DNA from: a virus
Lineage: Duplodnaviria > Heunggongvirae > Uroviricota > Caudoviricetes
Strand: one strand, 5' to 3'
Length of the DNA stretch: 37,300 nt
Virus record (IMG/VR): IMGVR_UViG_2925908680_000006
Below, piece after piece: positions 2,208 to 35,941 of the stretch. The position numbers and the translations under genes were made by a program. The notes under the pieces are model-generated. The model was given only the letters and a program-made list of their open reading frames with translations, was not told the origin of the DNA and ran no database searches. The number at the start of each line of letters is the position of its first letter. Position 1 is the first letter of the stretch.

Positions 2208-3317
2208 TCACTCTGTTTCTGCTATCCATTCCGGGATTTTTGCTTCAAGCTCAAGCTGCGTGGTAAAGCCACTGTTATCAATAGAGTGCTCCGCTTTTGC
2301 AATAATCCAGTCCTGATTATCAATCTCGCTTTTAAATCCTGTTACCGTGCCATGCATTTCGGGGTAGAGTTCTGCACGTCCACGCGCCAGCGTGATGGAA
2401 AATGATGCGGCTCCGCGTTGTAGTTGCTGCCACTTTGCCGCCGCTGCGCGTCTTGCTGCCTGCTCGTTCTGATAAGTCTTGCGTAACACAAACACATTGC
2501 CTTCCGCGCCTTCCATATAATCACCTTCACGGCTGCTGCTTTTCTCCTTTTTGGGTTTTGGCGGTTTACGGCGTTTCACGCTGACTTTTTTCTTTTTCCC
2601 GTAATTAAGATCAAGCCAGTAGGCGCGTACCCCCGTATACGCCTCGCGGTCAGCAATGCGGAACTGATGGCGATCGCCGCTGCTGCGTGTAATGGCGAAC
2701 GAGGGCAACGGCTGGCCCTGTGCGTTCACGCCACCACCTGGCATGATGAATAACAGATTGCCGCTTTTTACCGTGGTGATTGCGCCCAGCATTTCCGCCA
2801 TGCGCGTAAGGAAGGACATGTCGCTTTCTTCGGTCTGGTCGGCGTGGTCGATTTCGATATCCATCAGCATTTCGCTGATTTGCGGTTTCAGACCATACCG
2901 ATGAGCGATGGCGGATACCACACGCTCAACGGTCACATCATGCCAGGACACCTCACGTTTAACGTTAAATTCATCCCGAAAATCTGCGCTTCTGGCTGAA
3001 ACAGTCAGCCTGTCCGGCGGTCCTTCGTGAGCGATTTCATCAACAATGTAAGTGCCTTTTTCTGTCAGCGGTTCTCCCTTCCAGCCAATGAGAACCGTCA
3101 GGCGCGCGCCCCGTGGCGGTAGCTGCAACTGACCATCCGCATCATCCAGCGTGATGGTGAGCTGGTCCGCCTCAAATCCCCGGTTGTCGGTCAGTGACAG
3201 GCTCATCAGGCGCTCTGCCACGCCTGACAGCGTTTTACCCTCCGCGAGAATATCAAAATCCGGCATTTTCACGGGGTCTGTGCCCTGACTGAGCAATTGC
3301 ATGGTGGTGTCGGTCAT
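2208..3317 (-). CDS. D: Tail protein D (late control D family)
   Basis: 369 aa from ATG at 3317 preceded by GGGAGGG SD; LTDNRGFEADQL, SARSADFR, SWHD, GFTT motifs match remembered P2 gpD; the ORF-track N-terminal extension is ignored. Confidence 0.85.
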   Translation of the reverse strand: MTDTTMQLLSQGTDPVKMPDFDILAEGKTLSGVAERLMSLSLTDNRGFEADQLTITLDDADGQLQLPPRGARLTVLIGWKGEPLTEKGTYIVDEIAHEGPPDRLTVSARSADFRDEFNVKREVSWHDVTVERVVSAIAHRYGLKPQISEMLMDIEIDHADQTEESDMSFLTRMAEMLGAITTVKSGNLLFIMPGGGVNAQGQPLPSFAITRSSGDRHQFRIADREAYTGVRAYWLDLNYGKKKKVSVKRRKPPKPKKEKSSSREGDYMEGAEGNVFVLRKTYQNEQAARRAAAAKWQQLQRGAASFSITLARGRAELYPEMHGTVTGFKSEIDNQDWIIAKAEHSIDNSGFTTQLELEAKIPEWIAETE

Positions 3318-3474
3318 CTGCTCCCTCCCTGTGTGGCATGGTCGCATGTGCGTGCGGAGGGGGTTACTGCTTTTTGTTGTCGCCGTGGCGGGAGAATGGC
3401 GCAGGGGTGAGATTACGCGCGTGGTGGGTGATGATTGTTGCCGAATCATTTAACGGATACAAGGGGCTGAAGCT

Positions 3475-4659
3475 ATGAGTGAAACTCGTTTTCATGGTGC
3501 CCGTGTTACGGAAAATACCGACCTGGTAACAGCGATTAACGATGTTGATTCCAGCGTTATCGGTATCGTGGCAACGGCGGATGATGCGGACGCGAAGCTG
3601 TTCCCGCTGAACAAGCCCACACTGCTGACCCGCGTCAATGACGTGCTGGGAAAATGCGGAACAACGGGGACGCTTTATCGTGCGCTTAAGGCCATCGCAG
3701 ACCAGGTGAGCACAAAGGTGATCGTCGTTCGCGTGGCTGAACACAAAGAAGAAGACGGAAAGACGCAGGATCAACTGGTTATCGGTGGTTCTGAGGATGA
3801 CGGCAGCTATACGGGGATGTATGCGCTGCTTGTTGCAGAGCAGGATGAAAGCATCGGATACCGTCCGCGTATTCTGGCCGCGCCGGAGCTGGACACGGAG
3901 GCTGTAACAAAATCCCTGTGCGTGATTGCAGGTAAACTGCGCGCGTTTGTGTATGCCTCATGTCACGGCTGTAACACGATGGCTGAGGCGATTACCTACC
4001 GCCAGAAATTCAACGAACGTGAGGTGATGCTCTTATGGCCGGACTTCATCGCCTACAACCCGAAAAGTGGCAAAAACGAAACGTTCCCCGCGCCTGCCTA
4101 TGCGTGCGGCCTTCGTGCGTACATTGACCATGAGCAGGGATGGCACAAATCACTGTCCAACGTTCCGGTTAAAAATGTGCTGGGGATGTCGAGGCATGTG
4201 TTCTGGTCGTTACAGGCCGAAGACAGTGATGCCAACAGCCTCAACAACAAAGAAATCACGACCATTATTCGTCGCAACGGGTTCCGCTTCTGGGGCAACC
4301 GCACACCGGAAACGAACGCCTACATCTTTGAGGTGTATACCCGAACCGCACAGGTGCTGGCTGATTCAATTGCGGAAGCGCAGTTTGAAACCATCGACAG
4401 TCCACTGACGCCTGCGAACGTGAAGGATGTTATCAGTGCCATCAGGGCAAAACTGGATTCACTGGTTACTGCCGGGAAACTGATTGGCGCGGAGTGCTGG
4501 TATGACGTGGTGGATAACAGCACCACGGATTTACGTCAGGGACGTGTGCGTATTCGCTACAAATATACGCCCGTTCCGCCACTGGAAGACATGGAGCTTT
4601 ACCAGACGTTTACTGATGAATACTTTGAACCCGCATTTGCGGTGCTGGGAGGTGCCTGA
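3475..4659 (+). CDS. FI: Tail sheath protein FI
   Basis: 394 aa; FPLNKP, LRAF, GWHK, RFWGNRT, YTPVPPLE motifs match remembered P2 gpFI. Confidence 0.92.
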   Translation: MSETRFHGARVTENTDLVTAINDVDSSVIGIVATADDADAKLFPLNKPTLLTRVNDVLGKCGTTGTLYRALKAIADQVSTKVIVVRVAEHKEEDGKTQDQLVIGGSEDDGSYTGMYALLVAEQDESIGYRPRILAAPELDTEAVTKSLCVIAGKLRAFVYASCHGCNTMAEAITYRQKFNEREVMLLWPDFIAYNPKSGKNETFPAPAYACGLRAYIDHEQGWHKSLSNVPVKNVLGMSRHVFWSLQAEDSDANSLNNKEITTIIRRNGFRFWGNRTPETNAYIFEVYTRTAQVLADSIAEAQFETIDSPLTPANVKDVISAIRAKLDSLVTAGKLIGAECWYDVVDNSTTDLRQGRVRIRYKYTPVPPLEDMELYQTFTDEYFEPAFAVLGGA

Positions 4660-18192: not shown

Positions 18193-18581
18193 GCCGGATA
18201 GGCTCCGTGTGGTAACTGAAAATGCGGTCCGTCTTTCAGGGTCTTCCAGTCGCCGCCCCATTCCACCGGAATATTCAGTTCCCGGCTGGCCTGTCTGAAT
18301 GCTGCTGCGATTTTTTCGTACAGCGGCCATTCCCATGACACCTGGCTGCCGACATAAGCCACAACATCCACGGCATGCCCCGTAAGGTGGCGGCTGTTCA
18401 TGGTCTGGCTCTTACCTGTGGCCACAAGTTGCTTCTGGCGGTAACGGCTGCGCAACCCTTCGGTGATACCAAAATCCACTTCCGAGATTTCCAGTGCCCG
18501 TCGGGTCACTTTCACCAGATCAGGATTTACGCCCTGCAAATTCTTTTCGCTCCGGCTGCTGAATTTAAATGTGTTGCTCAT
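18189..18581 (-). CDS. Endolysin, peptidase M15 (L-alanyl-D-glutamate peptidase) family
   Basis: 130 aa; SRHLTGHAVDV and DGPHFQL zinc-ligand motifs typical of M15 endolysins. Confidence 0.8.
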   Translation of the reverse strand: MSNTFKFSSRSEKNLQGVNPDLVKVTRRALEISEVDFGITEGLRSRYRQKQLVATGKSQTMNSRHLTGHAVDVVAYVGSQVSWEWPLYEKIAAAFRQASRELNIPVEWGGDWKTLKDGPHFQLPHGAYPA

Positions 18582-18901
18582 TCGTCCTTCTCCTTCACCC
18601 TGCGATTAAAGGCCGTAATAACCTTGTCGCGTGCTTTCTCTGCGCCCATAAAACCGATTGATGCGCCGATAAACGTCACGGCATCTTCAGGAAAACCGAA
18701 GAAGCGCAACGACCCGGCCACGGCCATGGCAAGAACGCCGCACGCCAGCGATCCCGTTACGGTCTGAACCAGTGTTCGTCCGTCATAAAGACTCATCAGC
18801 GCGGAAATGCTGACCGCCGCGCCTACTGCATACACCGTTGGCAGGTGGTCAAAGAGCCACGCAATAACCTGCTCTGTGATCCCTGTTTGAATGGTGCTCA
18901 C
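18578..18901 (-). CDS. Putative holin
   Basis: About 107 aa from GTG at 18901, right after the X stop; 2-3 hydrophobic helices and charged C-terminus; start uncertain. Confidence 0.6.
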   Translation of the reverse strand: MSTIQTGITEQVIAWLFDHLPTVYAVGAAVSISALMSLYDGRTLVQTVTGSLACGVLAMAVAGSLRFFGFPEDAVTFIGASIGFMGAEKARDKVITAFNRRVKEKDE

Positions 18902-18903
18902 TG

Positions 18904-19104
18904 CTACTCCCCCCACAACTGAATCATTTCTCGTTTCTTCTTCTCCGGCTCCGGCATCTCCACTTCCTGCCCGGCGTCCAGAAATACCTGCTGACAGAGT
19001 CCGGGGTTGGCATCCAGCACCTTTTCGGTGACACCCTGCGTCGTGCCGTAGTACCGGAAACAGAGCGAATCCACGGTGTCGCCTTCCAGTGCCTTCACTT
19101 TCAT
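18904..19104 (-). CDS. X: Tail protein X
   Basis: 66 aa; MKVKALEGDTVDSLCFRYYG...VLDANPGL resembles remembered P2 gpX; ATG overlaps the L stop. Confidence 0.85.
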   Translation of the reverse strand: MKVKALEGDTVDSLCFRYYGTTQGVTEKVLDANPGLCQQVFLDAGQEVEMPEPEKKKREMIQLWGE

Positions 19105-27735: not shown

Positions 27736-28695
27736 TTACTCCTTGTCCATTGCGTACAGCCCATTAACCAGAGCAAACTGTGGCACCCCGTCCGCGATGA
27801 AAGTCGCATTAACTCCGCAGGCTTCGCGGATAGCGGGTGCCACAATCTCCGCCCCTCCACCGACAACCATCACCCGCCCGTAACCCGAAAAACCCGCCAG
27901 CGCGCGGATCACGCGTTGTTTCAGTGTTTCTTCCTTTTCACGAATAACCTCCATCAGGCTGGCGTAATGCGCGTCATTGTGGATGTGCTGGCGCAGCCAG
28001 GCTTCATTATGGCGATGTTCGATAATGGTATTGGCGATGTGGTGACTGGTGCGCATACCGTTAGTGGCCATCACCGACAGTACGGCATCGGCCATCAGAG
28101 AAACGCCTACGTGTGGATCGCAAAACACCTGGCTGATACCTGCCAGTTGCCCCTGAACCTTTGCCACATCCAGCGTGGTTCCGCCCAAATCTACAATCAG
28201 CAGGGATTCAAACGGACTCATGTCAGCCAGTGCCTTAAAGCCAGCCGGAATGGATTCAGGCATAACCCGCACGTTACGGATAGTGAATGCTTCGCCGTTC
28301 TGGTACTCCACCGGGCGCATAACGTTCGCTTTTTTGCGGTTGATGTTGGCCATGTCCGGCTGTGCGTTTGTGTCGAAATACTCGCTCAGTGGCAGGGTGA
28401 CAACCACATCCACCTCCTGTGGCGTGATGCCTGATTTGACCAGCGCGTGATGAATGGCAATGACATTCACATCGCTGTACTGGTATTGCGTGTCGGTCGT
28501 CTGGACAAAGCGATCGCTGACCGGATCAAAACCATAGCGCACGCCATCAAGCATGTAGTTCGCGGGCTGCGTGCCACCAAACGGCGCAGACCATTCCGAC
28601 TTGAAGCTGTTCGGGCTGATGGCGTTGCGGCGTTCGCCGTTCTCAGTCCATGCCAGCTTGATGTTGGTGGAGCCGTCGTCGATACAAATTTTCAT
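27736..28695 (-). CDS. parM: ParM/StbA-like actin-type segregation ATPase
   Basis: 319 aa; IDDGSTNIKL, ISPNSF, YSDVNV.A.HHAL, VMPESIPAG, DLGGTTLD, VGGGAE are strongly similar to remembered R1 ParM. Confidence 0.9.
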   Translation of the reverse strand: MKICIDDGSTNIKLAWTENGERRNAISPNSFKSEWSAPFGGTQPANYMLDGVRYGFDPVSDRFVQTTDTQYQYSDVNVIAIHHALVKSGITPQEVDVVVTLPLSEYFDTNAQPDMANINRKKANVMRPVEYQNGEAFTIRNVRVMPESIPAGFKALADMSPFESLLIVDLGGTTLDVAKVQGQLAGISQVFCDPHVGVSLMADAVLSVMATNGMRTSHHIANTIIEHRHNEAWLRQHIHNDAHYASLMEVIREKEETLKQRVIRALAGFSGYGRVMVVGGGAEIVAPAIREACGVNATFIADGVPQFALVNGLYAMDKE

Positions 28696-28726: not shown

Positions 28727-28838
28727 TTTACGGGATTCTAAAATCCCGTTTTTGCCTGTTTTGTGCGCGCTTCATATATCGCTGCGCGTTTTTTGCTCAT
28801 TTACGGGATTCGTGAGTCCCGTTTCTGTCTGTTTTTTG
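28727..28838. repeat. Two related palindromic repeats upstream of parM (parC-like candidate)
   Basis: tttacgggatt-ctaa-aatcccgt at 28727-28750 and tttacggga-ttcgtgag-tcccgt at 28800-28822, each followed by a T-rich ctgttttt segment; the second lies inside the 3' end of gene A. Confidence 0.5.
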
Positions 28839-31594
28839 TTTCCACTGGTCAGGCCACCCCGCAGCAGGTCTGCTTTGCGGCGGGCGCGTTCAGTGGTTTC
28901 ACTGATTCTCTGTGCGTGCTCTGCGTCGCGGATGGCGCGCAGCATGTCAGAAAGCACGGTAACGGGTGTTTTCATGGTGTTCTGGTCCTGCTGAAGTGTG
29001 GATGCCAGGCGTGCGGCGGCTTCAGGGTCTGATGCCCCCAGCTGTGCCAGATAGCTGGCGACCGGGTTATGGCGGATCTCCGTGCTGCTTACGCCGTGAT
29101 TACGGCTCAGGCGCTGCCAGAGCTGCGTGATTCGGCTGTCCGGGCGGGTATCCGGTTTGCGTACAATTTCAAATCCCTGCGGTGCAATGATGCTGCCGTC
29201 AACGTACAGACTGCCGCCCCGTAACAGGTGCTGCATCTGTTGTTCACCGATATGCAGGCCGAGAGATTCAGCAGACTCCCGCCATTCTTTAGCGAGTAAC
29301 TCGTGGTTATCAGGCAAAGGCCGCGGCTGTTTGCGGCTCTGTGTCCAGTTCTGCATTTCATCACTGTTGTTTTTTGCCTGTTTGTCACGCAGCGAACGCA
29401 TCAGCGCCCGGCGTTCGTGCCGTTTCAGTGAGTGCAGCCATTCGTTCACTTCAACACCGTCAGGGATCTGCGGCCACGGTGCTGGCCGTTCTTCCGGCTG
29501 TTCTGTCCCGTTGTTGTCCGTTTCCTGTACACGGGGACAGTTATTGCCACGAGTCCAAGGGGCGGCAGGGCCGCCCTGAAGGTCAAAACCATTTTCGCGG
29601 GCGCTGTCTTCCGCTTCCGGTTTACGTCTTACCAGCTTCCAGTTATCCGGGTGCGTGCACACGCGGGAAGACTCCCCGATGAGCGGCGACCAGATCCCGT
29701 AAATCTGTACACTCTGCTCGCCGTAATCGTTCAGCTCATCTGCGAGGTCGTAGGCGGTGCGAATCAGGTAGTCTTTACGTGGAACAAGTACGCCGCCCTG
29801 TTTTTCAATGTAGGAGGCAAAACACCCGGCATCAGCGGCAGCGAGTACCGCATCCATTGCATCATCCTTCAGCCGTTGCGGGCCTTCCGGGTTGCGTGCC
29901 ATCTGACAGGCAAGGCGGCGGAGTTCACGCCATACCTGACGGGAGGGGATGCCAAAGAACTGGAACTGGCGGACCCGATGAAGACGCGCCCAGCCAATGG
30001 CGCGCTCCACGCTCTCGGCCATTGATTTTCCGGTTTCGTGGTCAACGCGTGGCTTGCCCGTTTTCGGGTCGATGCCATCCACGGCGCGGCTGTCCAGGTT
30101 TTTTCCGATGTAGGTCGCGATATAGCTGGTTGGTGTGCCTTTTGAGCCGTCGACATACTCCGCCTTAAAGCGCGGAGTAATATCATCGCCCAGTTCGTGA
30201 CGATCTTCCTGAATGGCAATATCGCGGGTGATGGCCACGATGCTGTCGATTTCTTCCGGATGAGCAAAGACCATCATATGCCAGTGCACGGTGCCGTCAT
30301 GGTGAGGCTCCACCGTGCGGATGCCATACCAGCGCAGGCCGTCGCGGTTCAGTTTTTTGCGGACCGCCGCAAAAAACGTGTTAACCAGGTAATCGCTGGA
30401 GTCGCGCATGGTGGCCCCGTTCCATTTGGGGTTCGGATGACCGTTCTCCGTTGTTGCGTGGTATTTTGACGGGCAGGTGACAGTCAGAAACACCGCTTTG
30501 TCACCACGGGCTTCGGCCAGAAGTTCCAGCCCCTTCATGGTGGCCATCATTTCTGCCTTACGGTGAACCGGGTTACTTACTCCCGCGTAATACACTGTCT
30601 CGAGATCAATCGTGAACCCGTCTTCATTTTCCAGCATGAAACTTTTCAGGAAATCGCGTGTTTTCTCGCGCTGTGCGCGAAACTCGCTTAACGCGTCCTG
30701 GCTCAGATAGGGCGATGTTTTTCTGGAAACCAGACAGGCGGCGCGGAGTTGTTCTTCTCTCCACTCGCAACGTAACAGCCACAGTTTGCGTTTCCACCAT
30801 TCCGCACAGGTCAGGCGAAGGATTGCGCCCGGCAGCAGCTCCGTGTCCGGTTCGTTCCTCCGGTCTTTGTCTGTTGTCAGTGCGTCATAATGTGGAGGCA
30901 TGGCGTGCAGGTGTAACGCCATGCGGGCCAGCATCTGATACGCCTTCAGCGTTACATCCATGGTCAGTTCGCCATCGGTCGCGCCAAAGCCATCGCAGAG
31001 TTTTTCGAAGGTGCTGCTGAACATCGCCGCCGTCATGGTGGCCAGCGTCTGTATCTGGTGTTTGTTGAGCTGCGGCAGGTAAAGCAAATCGTCCAGGCGT
31101 TCGCGTCCGGCAAGGGAGCGATAACCCGGTGTCAGCCAGCGGTGATCGGTGCAGTCCAGACGTTCGAATATTTTGCGCAGGGTTCCGCGCGCGTAGCGTT
31201 CCGCCTGCCAGCTCTTTTTGCCTTTCTGACGATCGGCTTCCTGCTTCTTGCGCAGGAAGGAGAGGTGGCGAATAAGCGGATCGCGCAGATAGGACGGCAG
31301 CAGGCGCAGCGAGGCCATGGCTTCATCCACCGCGCCGCGTGCCTGTTTTCTGGCGTCTCCTGCCAGTGTGATGGTTTTGTCCTGTTTTTCCTGTGCGTCC
31401 AGGCTTTTATTAATCAGGTTGCCCAGCGGCGTGGCGGAGAACGCCGCATCAGCCATTTCCTGGCGGCGCTCGTTCTCTACCCGGTAGGCATCCAGCCAGG
31501 AGGAAAGCGCGGATTCAGGAGCGGGGATCTCCGTTCCTTCACGCCCCACTGCGTGGCGCGGTTGTTGCCAGTCCCTGATGTACTCTGCCGTCAT
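28772..31594 (-). CDS. A: Rolling-circle replication initiation endonuclease A
   Basis: 940 aa; HUH-type VHWHMMVF motif and the Y-containing TSYIATYIGKN segment as in the P2/186 A family. Confidence 0.88.
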   Translation of the reverse strand: MTAEYIRDWQQPRHAVGREGTEIPAPESALSSWLDAYRVENERRQEMADAAFSATPLGNLINKSLDAQEKQDKTITLAGDARKQARGAVDEAMASLRLLPSYLRDPLIRHLSFLRKKQEADRQKGKKSWQAERYARGTLRKIFERLDCTDHRWLTPGYRSLAGRERLDDLLYLPQLNKHQIQTLATMTAAMFSSTFEKLCDGFGATDGELTMDVTLKAYQMLARMALHLHAMPPHYDALTTDKDRRNEPDTELLPGAILRLTCAEWWKRKLWLLRCEWREEQLRAACLVSRKTSPYLSQDALSEFRAQREKTRDFLKSFMLENEDGFTIDLETVYYAGVSNPVHRKAEMMATMKGLELLAEARGDKAVFLTVTCPSKYHATTENGHPNPKWNGATMRDSSDYLVNTFFAAVRKKLNRDGLRWYGIRTVEPHHDGTVHWHMMVFAHPEEIDSIVAITRDIAIQEDRHELGDDITPRFKAEYVDGSKGTPTSYIATYIGKNLDSRAVDGIDPKTGKPRVDHETGKSMAESVERAIGWARLHRVRQFQFFGIPSRQVWRELRRLACQMARNPEGPQRLKDDAMDAVLAAADAGCFASYIEKQGGVLVPRKDYLIRTAYDLADELNDYGEQSVQIYGIWSPLIGESSRVCTHPDNWKLVRRKPEAEDSARENGFDLQGGPAAPWTRGNNCPRVQETDNNGTEQPEERPAPWPQIPDGVEVNEWLHSLKRHERRALMRSLRDKQAKNNSDEMQNWTQSRKQPRPLPDNHELLAKEWRESAESLGLHIGEQQMQHLLRGGSLYVDGSIIAPQGFEIVRKPDTRPDSRITQLWQRLSRNHGVSSTEIRHNPVASYLAQLGASDPEAAARLASTLQQDQNTMKTPVTVLSDMLRAIRDAEHAQRISETTERARRKADLLRGGLTSGNKKQTETGLTNPVNEQKTRSDI

Positions 31595-31600
31595 AGTGAT

Positions 31601-31966
31601 TTACTTCGTCATGCCATTCAGGGTGTCGCGGCAGACTGTAGCCAGCCTCTGAATTTCCAGCACGGTGTCTTCTGTGTCGGCATGGCGATGTGTGATGCGG
31701 ATGCTGTCGGCAATCACATCGACGATTGCAGAGGATGGGCGCTGGTAAATGCCAATAACGTACGGGGTGCCACCTTCAATGCGGTAAAGCCTGTAATTTC
31801 CCTCGTGGCTGTCAATCATGTAGCGACCATCAATAACAATCTTTCCGTCAGCGAGCTGCGGTACAGGCAGGGATTTCAGGTACATGTCATAACGTTCACG
31901 CACGCGAACGGCAAGATCACGCTCTGTGTTGAGCAGGTATTCAAGAAAGTCGTTGGCGAGAATCAT
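31601..31966 (-). CDS. Hypothetical early protein
   Basis: 121 aa ORF ending 6 nt before the A start. Confidence 0.55.
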   Translation of the reverse strand: MILANDFLEYLLNTERDLAVRVRERYDMYLKSLPVPQLADGKIVIDGRYMIDSHEGNYRLYRIEGGTPYVIGIYQRPSSAIVDVIADSIRITHRHADTEDTVLEIQRLATVCRDTLNGMTK

Positions 31967-32038
31967 TGCGGCAATCCTCTGGTTACAGATGTGCGAAGGC
32001 CTCCCGCCGCAAGGTGCAGGAAAGGCCCGGAACAGGAA

Positions 32039-32269
32039 TTAATGGAGTTTGTTTTGCTGCTGGATGAGCTGTTGAAGCTCGCGCAGATCATCCGCCAGAT
32101 AGCTGAAAACAGCGGATGAATAGAGGTTTGAAAGTTCGCAGCTACGCTCATGCAGCATATTGATGTGCATGATTTTAGCGACGCGGAATGCGCGGGAAAG
32201 TCTGCGGTTGATTTCAGTCTGGATGTGACGACGCTCCGCGATAGTGCGGTGCTGTTTGCGGTTTGCCAT
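32039..32269 (-). CDS. Hypothetical small basic protein
   Basis: 76 aa ORF downstream of the structured intergenic region. Confidence 0.5.
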   Translation of the reverse strand: MANRKQHRTIAERRHIQTEINRRLSRAFRVAKIMHINMLHERSCELSNLYSSAVFSYLADDLRELQQLIQQQNKLH

Positions 32270-32280
32270 GATATGTGGCC

Positions 32281-32500
32281 TCTTGTAGTAAGTTGTGAAA
32301 ACTCACCATCCAGAGCTGCGAAACTGTGGGTGGCGAGACGTACGAGGTTCGCAGTACCGGCTACAAGAGATCCCGGCCCGACCGAAGTCGGCCCCGTACG
32401 CCCCGCCATAATTCTGACGCGAAAAAAACGTGGCAATACAGTACGCACAAAAAAACCGCTGGCGCGGTTGTGCGCTCTTGTAGTCAGCAGGCTGCGAAAC
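32281..32500. promoter_or_regulatory. Intergenic region with three copies of a bipartite motif (ctcttgtag ... ctgcgaa), the middle copy inverted
   Basis: ctcttgtag at 32281 and 32474, ctacaagag at 32364; gctgcgaaac at 32315 and 32490, gttcgcag at 32347. Confidence 0.4.
32447..32469 (-). terminator. Candidate rho-independent terminator (minus strand)
   Basis: aaccgc-tggc-gcggtt hairpin with a run of 7-8 T immediately downstream on the minus strand. Confidence 0.4.
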
Positions 32501-32605
32501 CCGGCACCCGTTTTATGAGGTGCAGCGAAAATGTAACCTGACTGATTGCGGCATGGCAAGCGGTTTTTTTGTGAGAACGGCATACTAAAAAATCCTGATA
32601 CTGCT

Positions 32606-32630
32606 CCGGCCAGCGGTTTGCACTGGCCGG
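32606..32630 (-). terminator. Stem-loop just downstream of the SPFH gene
   Basis: ccggccag / ctggccgg 8-bp GC stem starting 7 nt after the stop; T-run is displaced. Confidence 0.4.
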
Positions 32631-32636
32631 GTGTCA

Positions 32637-33467
32637 TTACTTCACGGGAACGAACGGAACAGCGGTGTTACTGGTCATGTATTGCGGCAGCGTGCCGTTC
32701 CATTTGTTGATCGCTTCCAGCTCCATAACGCCGGGATTCTGGCGCAGAGCTTCACCGCGTAAACGAATGGCGTCGGCTTCAGCCTGGGCTTTTGTGCGAA
32801 TGGCATCAGCCTGTCCGGCAGCTTCTGCGCGCAACATGTTGGCTTCTGCTTCGCGTTGCTTGACTTCCTGTTCGCGTTGCAGGGTTTTCTGGTTTGCCGT
32901 GACTTTGGCGTTAATGCTGTCGATAACGGTTGGCGGATATTCCGGTTTACCGACATAAGAGAGGCTCATGACCTGAATACCGATGGGGGTCATCTCTTCC
33001 TGAATATCTTTAAGTGCTGAATCCAGCAGTTCAGACTTACCACCGTCGATAAACTTATCGGTGGTCATTTTGCTGGCCAGTCGGTTGAGTGCATCGGCGA
33101 TCTTCTGGCGCAGGTCAGTGTCGGTAATGTCGTCCACGCCTTTGCGGTAGGTCTGAAACACCGTGGTAACTTTGGATGGATCAACTTTGTAGGCCACGCC
33201 GATGTGATAGCCGATGGTTGTGCCGTCACTCATCTGGAAGCTGAACGGCTCATCGTAAGTCTTCATTTGTTTGAAGGTCGGGAAGATGTAAACCTCTGTA
33301 TTCCAGCCTGTCCAGTAGCGGCCAACGCCAACTACTTCGCCGACGCCTTTGTCGTCGCCCAGTTTGTTGACTTTGATGCCCACATTACCTGGCTCAACGC
33401 GATCGCAACCAACCAGCAGGATGGCGGCAAAAAGCGGGAGAATCTGAAATAGTCTGAATTTCTTCAT
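32637..33467 (-). CDS. SPFH/band-7 (prohibitin-like) family lipoprotein
   Basis: 276 aa; lipoprotein signal MKKFRLFQILPLFAAILLVGC; C-terminal Ala/Glu-rich coiled-coil typical of SPFH proteins. Confidence 0.7.
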   Translation of the reverse strand: MKKFRLFQILPLFAAILLVGCDRVEPGNVGIKVNKLGDDKGVGEVVGVGRYWTGWNTEVYIFPTFKQMKTYDEPFSFQMSDGTTIGYHIGVAYKVDPSKVTTVFQTYRKGVDDITDTDLRQKIADALNRLASKMTTDKFIDGGKSELLDSALKDIQEEMTPIGIQVMSLSYVGKPEYPPTVIDSINAKVTANQKTLQREQEVKQREAEANMLRAEAAGQADAIRTKAQAEADAIRLRGEALRQNPGVMELEAINKWNGTLPQYMTSNTAVPFVPVK

Positions 33468-33667
33468 TGTTTGATTTCCTTGATGTACTTACTGAAAAGG
33501 CGAACAACGCCTGCCGGGTACAGCATGGCAATGAAAATGCCCAGCAATACCAGGAAGGAGCTGTCTGATGAAATCATTCGGGGGAGTAGTCCTGCATACA
33601 GAATGAGAGAGACGAGGACGCATACCAGCGCCCACATGTATGCGCGAAACCAGGTCTTTTTGTTCAT
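33464..33667 (-). CDS. Small two-helix membrane protein, partner of the SPFH gene
   Basis: 67 aa, two hydrophobic segments; stop overlaps the SPFH start. Confidence 0.55.
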   Translation of the reverse strand: MNKKTWFRAYMWALVCVLVSLILYAGLLPRMISSDSSFLVLLGIFIAMLYPAGVVRLFSKYIKEIKQ

Positions 33668-33678
33668 ATCGCGGTCCT

Positions 33679-33978
33679 TTACTGGTTAAGGAAAAAATCA
33701 AAAACCTTGTCGATGCGTTGCAGTAGCTCTCGTTGCATTGCTTCCGGCGTTTCCGGTTCTCCTGGCGCCTCCAACGTCGCGCAGAAATCCTTGATTTCAT
33801 GATGGAGTGTCAGGCGAATGGCTGGAGCCATGGTTCTGACGTGCTCCAGCTCATCCAGCAGTGCCAGCACGGCAGATGGTGAGAGCATTGCGCGAAACGC
33901 CAGTAATTTTTGATGCGTTGCCATTCGTTGCAGGGCAAATGCCAGTTCGCGTAGTTCCTGGTAGTTGATGGTGCTCAT
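33679..33978 (-). CDS. Hypothetical early protein
   Basis: 99 aa ORF in the early operon. Confidence 0.5.
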   Translation of the reverse strand: MSTINYQELRELAFALQRMATHQKLLAFRAMLSPSAVLALLDELEHVRTMAPAIRLTLHHEIKDFCATLEAPGEPETPEAMQRELLQRIDKVFDFFLNQ

Positions 33979-34220
33979 GCTCTGGCTTCCTTCAGTAGTT
34001 GGTTAAACATGTTGGTAAGTGGATTGCCGCACCCGAACGGCATCGGGTTTATCTGGTAAGAAAAGCGACCGCCTGTTTTGCGCTCTTTTCTTATGACTGA
34101 ACCGCTGCGCCAGAGTCGGCGTAACTCCGCATTAATGGCTGTGGTTGGGGTATTCAGTGCTGCGGCGATTTCTCCACCGCTACAACCCGGATTGGCGGCG
34201 ATGTAGTCCAGAATGGTCAT
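33975..34220 (-). CDS. Putative winged-helix DNA-binding protein
   Basis: 81 aa; ...GCSGGEIAAALNTPTTAINAELRRLWRSGSVIRK... looks like a wHTH. Confidence 0.5.
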   Translation of the reverse strand: MTILDYIAANPGCSGGEIAAALNTPTTAINAELRRLWRSGSVIRKERKTGGRFSYQINPMPFGCGNPLTNMFNQLLKEARA

Positions 34221-34494: not shown

Positions 34495-34620
34495 TTATTT
34501 GCTCTGTTTTTCGCCAGTGAAAAAGCGTTCAATCTTTTTTACTGAATGAATAATTCGCATAATCCCAATGGCGCAGGCCACCGAAATAATCAGAACAAGC
34601 CATGAGATAAATATACTCAT
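34495..34620 (-). CDS. Candidate 41-aa single-pass membrane peptide
   Basis: MSIFISWLVLIISVACAIGIMRIIHSVKKIERFFTGEKQSK; ATG overlaps the upstream gene stop (ATGA); below the ORF-track size cutoff. Confidence 0.4.
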   Translation of the reverse strand: MSIFISWLVLIISVACAIGIMRIIHSVKKIERFFTGEKQSK

Positions 34621-35519: not shown

Positions 35520-35846
35520 TCATGCAGCAAAATTAAGGAAGCCTAATCCCAAATCTTCCGCCAGCTTCTTGGCTTTCTTAAGCCAGTGATTGCGCCAATC
35601 TTTACGCTCAGGAGGAAGCTGTTTCGTTGCGTCATAGACCATTTCGAGCCACTCATTCCAAAGGATGAGAAGACGGCGCGAACTCCCTTCCTCGCCTAAA
35701 ACCTCGCGCTCAGTAGTTAGAGGGATGAGTCGACGCTCTACCAACTTTCTTACGGCTGATTCGGTCTTACCTGTGCGGCGGGAAAACTCATCGACGGTGA
35801 TGGGGTCTGGGATCTTAAACAATGCCCTCAATAGTTCTTCATTCAT
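35520..35846 (-). CDS. cox: Cox-like excisionase/early regulator
   Basis: 108 aa from ATG at 35846; I.V.EF...GK...AVR....R..IP and a C-terminal W...LGLG parallel remembered P2 Cox; divergent from C. Confidence 0.7.
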   Translation of the reverse strand: MNEELLRALFKIPDPITVDEFSRRTGKTESAVRKLVERRLIPLTTEREVLGEEGSSRRLLILWNEWLEMVYDATKQLPPERKDWRNHWLKKAKKLAEDLGLGFLNFAA

Positions 35847-35941
35847 GTGATAATCTCCCTGTTTGGGGTATTTCTTGCGACGGATGCCCCAAATCAAACT
35901 CATTTGTATAAACATTAATACAGACGTTGGAGAATTGCAAC
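35847..35941. promoter_or_regulatory. Immunity switch region (early and repressor promoters/operators) between cox and C
   Basis: About 95 bp between divergent cox and C starts; contains inverted repeat tttgggg ... ccccaaa. Confidence 0.5.

Follow-up and report, generated by a model that had tools for sequence, protein, structure and literature searches.

The systems described so far that come closest to the gene pair analyzed here are HflK/HflC of E. coli, which form a cage enclosing FtsH, the SPFH–NfeD operons (QmcA–YbbJ, YqiK–YqiJ and FloA/FloT–NfeD; PDB 8z5g) and a number of phage proteins known from catalogues and genome annotation. The pair is located at positions 32,637 to 33,667, on the minus strand, of a 37,300-nucleotide stretch of DNA from a tailed virus of the class Caudoviricetes (IMG/VR record IMGVR_UViG_2925908680_000006; the whole stretch is called the window below). 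It codes for a pair of coupled membrane proteins that belong together: an exported SPFH/Band-7 protein of 276 amino acids (aa) and a 67-aa protein, referred to here as the hairpin or the partner. The evidence comprises the domain, the fold, the signal features, the gene coupling, the conservation of the partner, natural fusions, the insertion/deletion (indel) status of the locus and its distribution. We put the probability that the two genes encode the halves of a single membrane scaffold, produced early in the lytic program, at about 55%.

The phage SPFH protein shares with HflK/HflC the SPFH domain with a long coiled-coil helix, a predicted position on the periplasmic face of the inner membrane and a Foldseek probability of 1.0. 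It differs in its predicted lipid anchor at Cys21, which stands in place of an N-terminal transmembrane (TM) helix, and in the composition of the system, which is phage-encoded and consists of one SPFH protein and a 67-aa hairpin, not of two SPFH paralogues. With the SPFH–NfeD operons the locus has in common the coupling of an SPFH gene with a gene for a small membrane protein, and QmcA also matched the phage SPFH protein in fold (E 1.8e-7), but the phage partner is devoid of the NfeD OB-fold domain. Moreover, QmcA faces the cytoplasm, whereas the phage SPFH protein is predicted to be periplasmic.

Catalogued phage members of the same family include PHROG 200, P88 gp12, MbpS of Kayvirus, the 'band 7 lipoprotein' of phiCbK and the 'HflK family' proteins of N4-like phages and Bruynoghevirus. 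P88 gp12 is 99.6% identical to the SPFH protein of the window and P88 gp11 is 98.5% identical to its partner, and as a system the P88 pair shows no difference from the pair in the window. The cassette is thus an ordinary catalogued accessory module (P88 gp11/gp12 in GenBank and RefSeq, PHROG 1130/200), common in E. coli. The function of phage SPFH proteins has been stated as unknown (PMC8540360, PMC7150955, PMC13239085), and for the Kayvirus protein a possible help in the secretion of lytic enzymes was put forward as a speculation (PMC7150955). In the literature search neither experiments on a phage SPFH protein nor a published function came to light; the single paper with experiments on an HflK/C-like protein encoded by a prophage deals with PM0222 (PMC9872710).

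A coupled gene pair for an SPFH lipoprotein and a hairpin protein

The window was identified as a complete prophage of the P2 family (Peduoviridae) and of the P88-like type (Xuanwuvirus). Its late genes were matched at 96–98% by Escherichia phages 503458, Chuche, PhiR44_2 and P88, and P88 (genus Xuanwuvirus) was 95.9% identical to the examined stretch at the nucleotide (nt) level. The early genes lie on the minus strand in the order Cox-like gene (35520..35915), several small open reading frames (ORFs), replication endonuclease gene A (28772..31594). The hairpin and SPFH genes are situated inside this series, with the following features:

32574..33678, minus strand: accessory cassette made up of the partner gene, the SPFH lipoprotein gene and a 63-bp 3' tail (blastn against P88_4B11)
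33464..33667, minus strand: 67-aa hairpin membrane partner (ORF list, hydropathy and charge distribution, PHROG 1130, family alignment)
32637..33467, minus strand: SPFH/Band-7 lipoprotein precursor of 276 aa (Pfam PF01145, PHROG 200, AlphaFold2 model with Foldseek)
33405..33467, minus strand: predicted lipoprotein signal peptide (aa 1–20) with the lipobox L-V-G-C and Cys21 (read from the sequence)
32841..33401, minus strand: SPFH domain proper, aa 23–209 (Pfam envelope; strands and helices of the model)
32739..32933, minus strand: long C-terminal helix, aa 179–243, rich in Ala and Glu and followed by a family-specific KWNGxLP tail (DSSP of the AlphaFold2 model)

Compared with P88_4B11-type phages, the cassette forms a clean indel of 1105 bp. 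The segment 32574..33678 was recognized as an insert because the window flanks adjoin each other in P88_4B11, in which blastn placed 32200-32573 and 33679-34100 contiguously with about 18 bp between them; the insert comprises 11 bp upstream of the small ORF and 63 bp downstream of the SPFH gene. The stop codon of the small gene and the start codon of the SPFH gene share four bases, ATGA (CAA TGA / ATG AAG), and an AAGGA ribosome-binding site (RBS) precedes the ATG of both genes by 7–10 nt. A chance pair of ORFs is ruled out, since the same arrangement is kept in P88, Stx2 phages, P1-like phage-plasmids and distant phages.

The 276-aa protein matched the Pfam family Band_7 (PF01145, clan CL0433) with E 5.7e-31 and 108.4 bits (cut-off 23.6), over residues 23–209 and profile positions 2–176 of 176, and PHROG 200, 'lipoprotein', with E 2.4e-112. 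Its AlphaFold2 model, with a mean predicted local distance difference test (pLDDT) score of 73.8, consisted of an SPFH alpha/beta domain and one long helix (residues 179–243), so that the modeled fold corresponds to the SPFH domain with a long coiled-coil helix found in cage-forming members. Foldseek aligned 250–300 columns of the model, nearly its whole length, with a probability of 1.0, to the solved cage-forming SPFH proteins PHB1/2, HflK/C, erlin1/2, stomatin, flotillin and QmcA. In a PDB profile search with 50 diverse homologues, prohibitin 1 (6e-11), HflK (1.6e-7) and QmcA (8e-7) were found, and across these homologues W256, G258 and P261 were invariant or nearly so. The HflK/HflC equivalog models of NCBIfam (TIGR01933, TIGR01932, NF008181 and NF008259) gave 18.8–25.7 bits, below the cut-offs of 134–660, and the protein was therefore rejected as an HflK or HflC orthologue.

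Bacterial lipoproteins processed by the Lgt/LspA/Lnt pathway are recognized by a basic n-region, a hydrophobic h-region and a lipobox of the form [LVI][ASTVI][GAS]C. These elements were found in the SPFH protein (MKKFR-LFQILPLFAAILLVG-C21), the lipidation itself being predicted. The N-terminus reads MKKFRLFQILPLFAAILLVG followed by C21-D-R, with the expected cleavage between LLVG and C and with Asp22 at position +2. The lipobox was kept in most homologues from phages of Gram-negative hosts, and the residues at +2/+3 were D-R in 96 of the 104 close homologues with a detectable lipobox. An N-terminal TM anchor replaces the lipobox in relatives from Gram-positive phages and archaeal viruses, which would again place the SPFH domain outside the cytoplasmic membrane. 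In E. coli, according to the +2 rule, Asp at this position keeps a lipoprotein in the inner membrane; Asp22 therefore predicts inner-membrane retention of the SPFH lipoprotein.

The 67-aa protein contains two hydrophobic stretches (residues ~9–28 and ~37–57) joined by the short loop LLPRMISSDSS, and both its ends are basic (N-terminus MNKKTWFR, C-terminus RLFSKYIKEIKQ). Following the positive-inside rule, both ends are predicted to be cytoplasmic and the loop periplasmic. The protein matched PHROG 1130, 'membrane protein', with E 1.3e-22, and no Pfam match was obtained at E <= 0.01. For 20 members of the hairpin family no NfeD match was seen in Pfam at E <= 1 and nothing rose above noise, and the PDB search of the family returned no relative, only noise due to transmembrane composition.

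The original prediction, made from the window alone, had read the locus as an SPFH/band-7 protein, secreted and lipid-anchored, coupled through an overlapping stop and start to a 67-aa membrane protein with two helices. The domain search (PF01145, E 5.7e-31), the lipoprotein signal with L-V-G-C21, the two hydrophobic stretches with their PHROG 1130 match and the ATGA overlap at the minus-strand positions given above bore this out. Its comparison of the pair with an SPFH–NfeD-type module did not hold: NfeD (PF01957) was rejected as the identity of the partner because Pfam gave no match and because 67 aa, forming two TM helices, leave no room for an OB-fold domain.

Conservation of the partner and natural fusions

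The 67-aa hairpin is a specific, conserved partner of the SPFH protein. In the Stx2a phage Stx2_EH2201 and in the P1-like phage-plasmid RCS47, unannotated ORFs of 62 and 78 aa overlap the SPFH start by 4 and 20 bp, respectively:

Stx2_EH2201, locus 3467-3655, minus strand: unannotated hairpin ORF, aligning with the 67-aa protein of the window
RCS47, locus 3809-4045, minus strand: unannotated hairpin ORF, likewise aligning with the 67-aa protein of the window

Residues P29, I32, S33 and G43 were invariant among the hairpin proteins of the window, Stx2_EH2201 and RCS47, and the family alignment gave Y-G-x3-P-x-[LM]-[IV]-S-[AS]-x-[SD]-[ST] as the core of the loop. The hairpin gene is absent from the annotation of many records in which the SPFH gene is annotated, among them Stx2a-converting phages, RCS47 and several P1 records.

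A search with an 8-sequence alignment reached only relatives of more than 92% identity, and the diverse-phage sample consisted of 15 named phage records with an SPFH homologue. In 13 of them a small gene was located immediately upstream of the SPFH gene, and in EfV12-phi1 and HRTV-21 it was located immediately downstream. The loop motif was found in Klebsiella phage P18-100, Enterobacter phage SABI, the N4-like phage vB_Eco_SPSP, Aeromonas phage Gekk3-15, Klebsiella phage BIS47 (with the partner two genes upstream), Burkholderia phage vB_E253, Myxococcus phage Mx1 and Agrobacterium phage OLIVR5. A profile hidden Markov model (HMM) of the hairpin had a same-strand upstream match in 92 of 98 SPFH-bearing loci, with a spacing of -4 bp in 59 loci and -20 bp in 20, most matches overlapping the SPFH start. 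These 98 loci are mostly close relatives, and the independent evidence lies in the diverse named phages, 9 of 15 of which had a partner detected by the profile HMM when Pseudomonas phage U47, with its match 448 bp upstream, is counted. The hosts of the phages with a partner in this sample were Klebsiella, Enterobacter, Escherichia (N4-like), Aeromonas, Burkholderia, Pseudomonas, Myxococcus and Agrobacterium.

The homologue search covered 1.84 billion representative proteins, the representatives being clustered at 50% identity, and yielded 2906 homologues. Among the best 150 of the 2906, about 20 were fusions of 320–390 aa, in which the hairpin stands at the N-terminus, then a basic linker, then a hydrophobic segment with a lipobox at its end, and last the SPFH protein. 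The same kind of fusion occurs in P0001, a close P1-like relative with 97% identity. The existence of such fusions argues that the two proteins work together physically, and the basic linker supports the topology proposed for the pair. It is a possibility that signal peptidase II splits the fused precursor at the internal lipobox into the same two products.

Early-operon context, distribution and neighboring genes

No promoter-like site was found near the cassette. The small ORF follows the stop codon of the Ead-like gene upstream of it after a gap of 11 bp, which holds the RBS. In P2, the immunity repressor shuts off the early promoter in the lysogen. The lack of an own promoter and the short RBS-bearing gap indicate that the cassette should share the early promoter with the replication genes and should be silenced by the repressor in the lysogen.

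Comparable positions were seen in other phages. In P1, whose operon structure was read from the annotated record, the tciA-tciB-tciC genes (18234-18930) lie between upl and trnI/ban, inside the C1-controlled ban operon, and in RCS47-type relatives of P1 the SPFH pair (RCS47 locus 3001-4045) occupies the tciABC slot of this operon. The tciABC genes (TerB-like, 'tellurite/colicin resistance or inhibition of cell division') and the SPFH pair are alternative small envelope-related accessory modules at one slot; they have no sequence relationship and the equivalence is positional only. In Stx2 phages the pair is located between the cI region and xis/int, which looks like the distal part of the PL operon and is apparently equivalent to the early operon.

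The whole cassette was present in 145 of 5426 complete E. coli genomes and the empty junction in 947, and a copy 100% identical to that of the window was found in the chromosome of E. coli strain E94. The SPFH gene itself occurred in 534 of the 5426 genomes (~10%), carried by prophages and P1-like plasmids; 197 of its 615 places were on plasmids, the listed examples being P1-like in size. As the original prediction had stated, P2 has no such gene: its early operon (cox-orf78-B-orf80-83-A-orf91) holds no equivalent of the SPFH pair, which is also absent from the close relatives P88_4B11, PhiR44_2 and Shae_phiSM. Comparative genomics, with the 1105-bp indel and 145 filled as against 947 empty junctions, likewise spoke against a conserved core early gene of the P2 family, and the pair is an optional, horizontally exchanged module. 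Beyond E. coli, tblastn detected SPFH homologues in 774 of 50,697 phage records (~1.5%). Many of the carriers are strictly virulent, and the 774 records include 244 of Staphylococcus, N4-like phages, Vequintavirinae, Bruynoghevirus and jumbo phages, as well as Kayvirus, phiCbK, crAss-like phages and haloarchaeal tailed viruses.

The mature SPFH coding part of the window was 92.5% identical in nucleotide sequence to the Stx-phage copy and 86.7% to the P1-like copy. The similarity to both began at or near the stop codon and ended at 33410-33416, which is the lipobox, and the mosaic boundary was accordingly placed at 33405-33416 in the window, at ~3422 in the Stx2_EH2201 locus and at ~3774 in the RCS47 locus. 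Upstream of the lipobox, the signal peptide and the hairpin gene had no detectable nucleotide similarity and 25–45% aa identity. This sharp break suggests that the mature SPFH part and the part formed by the hairpin plus the signal peptide have had different histories, or very different evolutionary rates.

One further feature was noticed within the cassette, directly after the SPFH stop codon:

32606..32630, minus strand: GC-rich 10-bp stem-loop (RNA fold, minimum free energy -24.8 kcal/mol, z -2.5)

The terminator scan did not report this stem-loop. It was rejected as a terminator of the cassette because no T-run adjoins it (a T-run starts 11 nt past the stem) and because it would block transcription of the downstream gene A. 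Candidate roles for it are those of an RNA stabilizer, a processing site or a weak terminator.

Immediately downstream of the cassette lies an isrK RNA gene (32449-32523, minus strand; Rfam, 66.7 bits), accompanied by a C4 antisense RNA (32326-32413, minus strand; Rfam, 81.1 bits) and, next after these, by the gene of a 76-aa 'derepression protein' (PF25738; 32039-32269, minus strand). A promoter-like site precedes both isrK and C4, and a terminator-like hairpin follows isrK. The set looks like an antisense-RNA-controlled antirepressor module of the P1/P7/P4 type within a P2-family early operon. An ORF of 224 aa (31963..32637, minus strand), abutting the SPFH stop codon, overlaps isrK, C4 and the derepression gene in another frame and was set aside as probably spurious; its counterpart in P88_4B11 (locus 2564-3181) is annotated as 'transcriptional regulator'. 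The same early operon contains a 41-aa single-helix membrane ORF (34495-34620, minus strand; MSIFISWLVLIISVACAIGIMRIIH...), at a position equivalent to that of the P88 gp07 'membrane protein' and matched to it by position only. Just downstream of gene A, a 319-aa ORF (27736-28695, minus strand) corresponds by position to the 'plasmid segregation protein ParM' of P88, a label unusual for an integrating P2-family phage.

A proposed membrane scaffold and its rivals

In the reading that we prefer, the 276-aa protein would be exported and lipidated at Cys21, and Asp at +2 would keep it anchored in the inner membrane's outer leaflet. Because of this anchor its SPFH domain and long helix would face the periplasm, as those of HflK/C do in bacteria and those of prohibitins in mitochondria. 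Like all full-length SPFH proteins of solved structure, the lipoprotein may oligomerize into a ring, dome or cage over a membrane patch. The translationally coupled 67-aa hairpin would supply the transmembrane part, a palisade that in HflK/C and prohibitins belongs to the same chain, and its conserved short loop (P-x-M-I-S-S) would face the SPFH protein. The pair would be a 'split' version of a TM-anchored SPFH protein, which in many relatives is made as a single polypeptide with an internal lipobox, perhaps cut by LspA. Transcribed along with the phage early operon, the assembly would fence off a patch of the inner membrane early in infection.

Several points weigh against this scaffold. Its topology, oligomerization, lipidation, localization, expression timing and biological role are what we infer, and the purpose that we favor, to condition or protect the inner membrane of the infected cell, e.g., from failing too soon or from a second injection of DNA, is one guess of several. 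The retention by Asp at +2 may be weakened by the Arg at +3. The AlphaFold2 model is a moderately confident one of a monomer, built from a shallow alignment and with a pLDDT below 50 over the C-terminal 30 residues, and the natural fusion P0001, modeled by AlphaFold from the single sequence without an alignment, reached a pLDDT of 49. In one homologue, P0129, the hairpin was found at the C-terminus (residues 283-336), after an internal-start-like Met-Lys-Lys (MKKEII...). Its loop would therefore face the cytoplasm, unless the ORF is a read-through of two genes; P0129 may indeed be such a read-through with the two genes in reversed order, possibly from a phage with a recoded stop codon. Finally, the hairpin HMM detected no partner in the most distant SPFH relatives (25-32% identity; MbpS of Kayvirus, Enterococcus phages, phiCbK, the crAss-like phage and haloarchaeal viruses) nor in Erwinia phage Pistou (~38% SPFH identity). 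A gene for a small membrane protein adjoins the SPFH gene in most of these HMM-negative relatives, and the small protein next to it in the crAss-like phage has a similar N-M-I-S-Q-A-N-T loop.

Siting in the early operon, the lack of an own promoter and the homologues in virulent phages together favor a role in the lytic cycle, and they make a scaffold at the periplasmic side of the inner membrane, at work in that cycle, more likely than a defence expressed in the lysogen. The original prediction had proposed superinfection exclusion, membrane remodeling or abortive infection, of which the first two are possible in lytic growth. In superinfection exclusion, the periplasm-facing complex would block DNA entry or inner-membrane penetration by later phages, during lytic growth or from the lysogen. 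The envelope location of the pair, its accessory mobile slot and an early expression that would suit exclusion by virulent phages are in keeping with this, and in the N4-like vB_Eco_SPSP and the Vi01-like PhiSH19 the pair adjoins a gene annotated 'superinfection exclusion protein'. Such annotations are, however, bare names, neither a similarity to known superinfection exclusion proteins nor a PADLOC match was found, and expression from the lysogen is unlikely for a cassette with no promoter of its own in this prophage, so that we regard exclusion as a possible but rather unlikely purpose. A mimic of HflK/C, with a cage that traps or screens off the host's FtsH or a different membrane protease and so alters membrane-protein turnover, the lysis–lysogeny choice or the timing of lysis, seems to us somewhat less likely again. 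The membrane side and overall architecture are those of HflK/C and prohibitins, which enclose FtsH-type proteases, there are weak NCBIfam matches to HflC and HflK, the pair is located near int/xis in lambdoid phages, and the same speculation was made by some authors (PMC8540360) and in the annotation of Gekk3-15. The 19–26 bits against cut-offs of 134–660 exclude an orthologue, though, the likeness is a generic SPFH one, equally close to prohibitin, erlin and stomatin, and SPFH homologues are common in virulent phages, which make no lysogeny decision.

A module of anti-phage defence or abortive infection expressed in the lysogen is improbable. The cassette is a variable accessory one in a prophage, it encodes membrane proteins, and other variable loci of the P2 family carry defence genes; it nevertheless sits inside a repressor-controlled early operon, 11 bp behind the preceding gene and with no promoter, and its SPFH homologues are widespread in strictly lytic phages. 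With PADLOC-DB 2.0.0 the SPFH protein went unmatched and the partner matched PDC-M18B below threshold only (E 0.0078, no passing stretch), and the literature search did not find a link between SPFH proteins and anti-phage activity. Very little speaks for a lysogenic-conversion or virulence lipoprotein released in outer-membrane vesicles (OMVs) and sensed by TLR1/2, a reading that draws on Pasteurella multocida PM0222, a prophage-encoded HflK/C-like SPFH protein, likened to the phage protein by description only, which is secreted in OMVs, acts as a TLR1/2 agonist and whose deletion attenuates virulence (PMC9872710). Asp at +2 predicts the inner membrane, not the outer membrane or OMVs, and the virulent, environmental and archaeal virus carriers argue for a phage-centered role. 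We give practically no credence to a serine protease or to the SPFH half of a canonical SPFH–NfeD operon. The 'serine protease' annotation in Stx2 phages, phiP27 and RCS47 and a weak match to PHROG 11227, 'protease' (E 4.8e-4), stand against the absence of a protease domain in the Pfam and NCBIfam searches and of an NfeD or ClpP-like domain in the partner. The label was rejected as a legacy misnomer, which presumably goes back to the old COG0330 name 'membrane protease subunits'.

The scaffold set out above can also be widened into a pan-phage device for taking over the host membrane, i.e., a split, periplasm-facing SPFH cage, made in some lineages from a precursor cut by signal peptidase II, deployed early by temperate and virulent phages alike and either sequestering an FtsH-like factor or closing the DNA-entry route to competitors. 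This wider version is put forward tentatively, as a good deal less probable than the scaffold itself.

As far as could be found, the dedicated hairpin partner, the fusions with an internal lipobox and the consistent early-operon placement have no earlier description. The role of SPFH proteins in phages is still called unclear in papers up to 2026, and with the partner, the fusions and the siting in the early operon, what had been a vague annotation becomes a two-subunit system open to testing. If its function were found, it would reveal the way in which phages act on the host's inner membrane from the periplasm, and the SPFH cage family would gain a split architecture with a lipid anchor.

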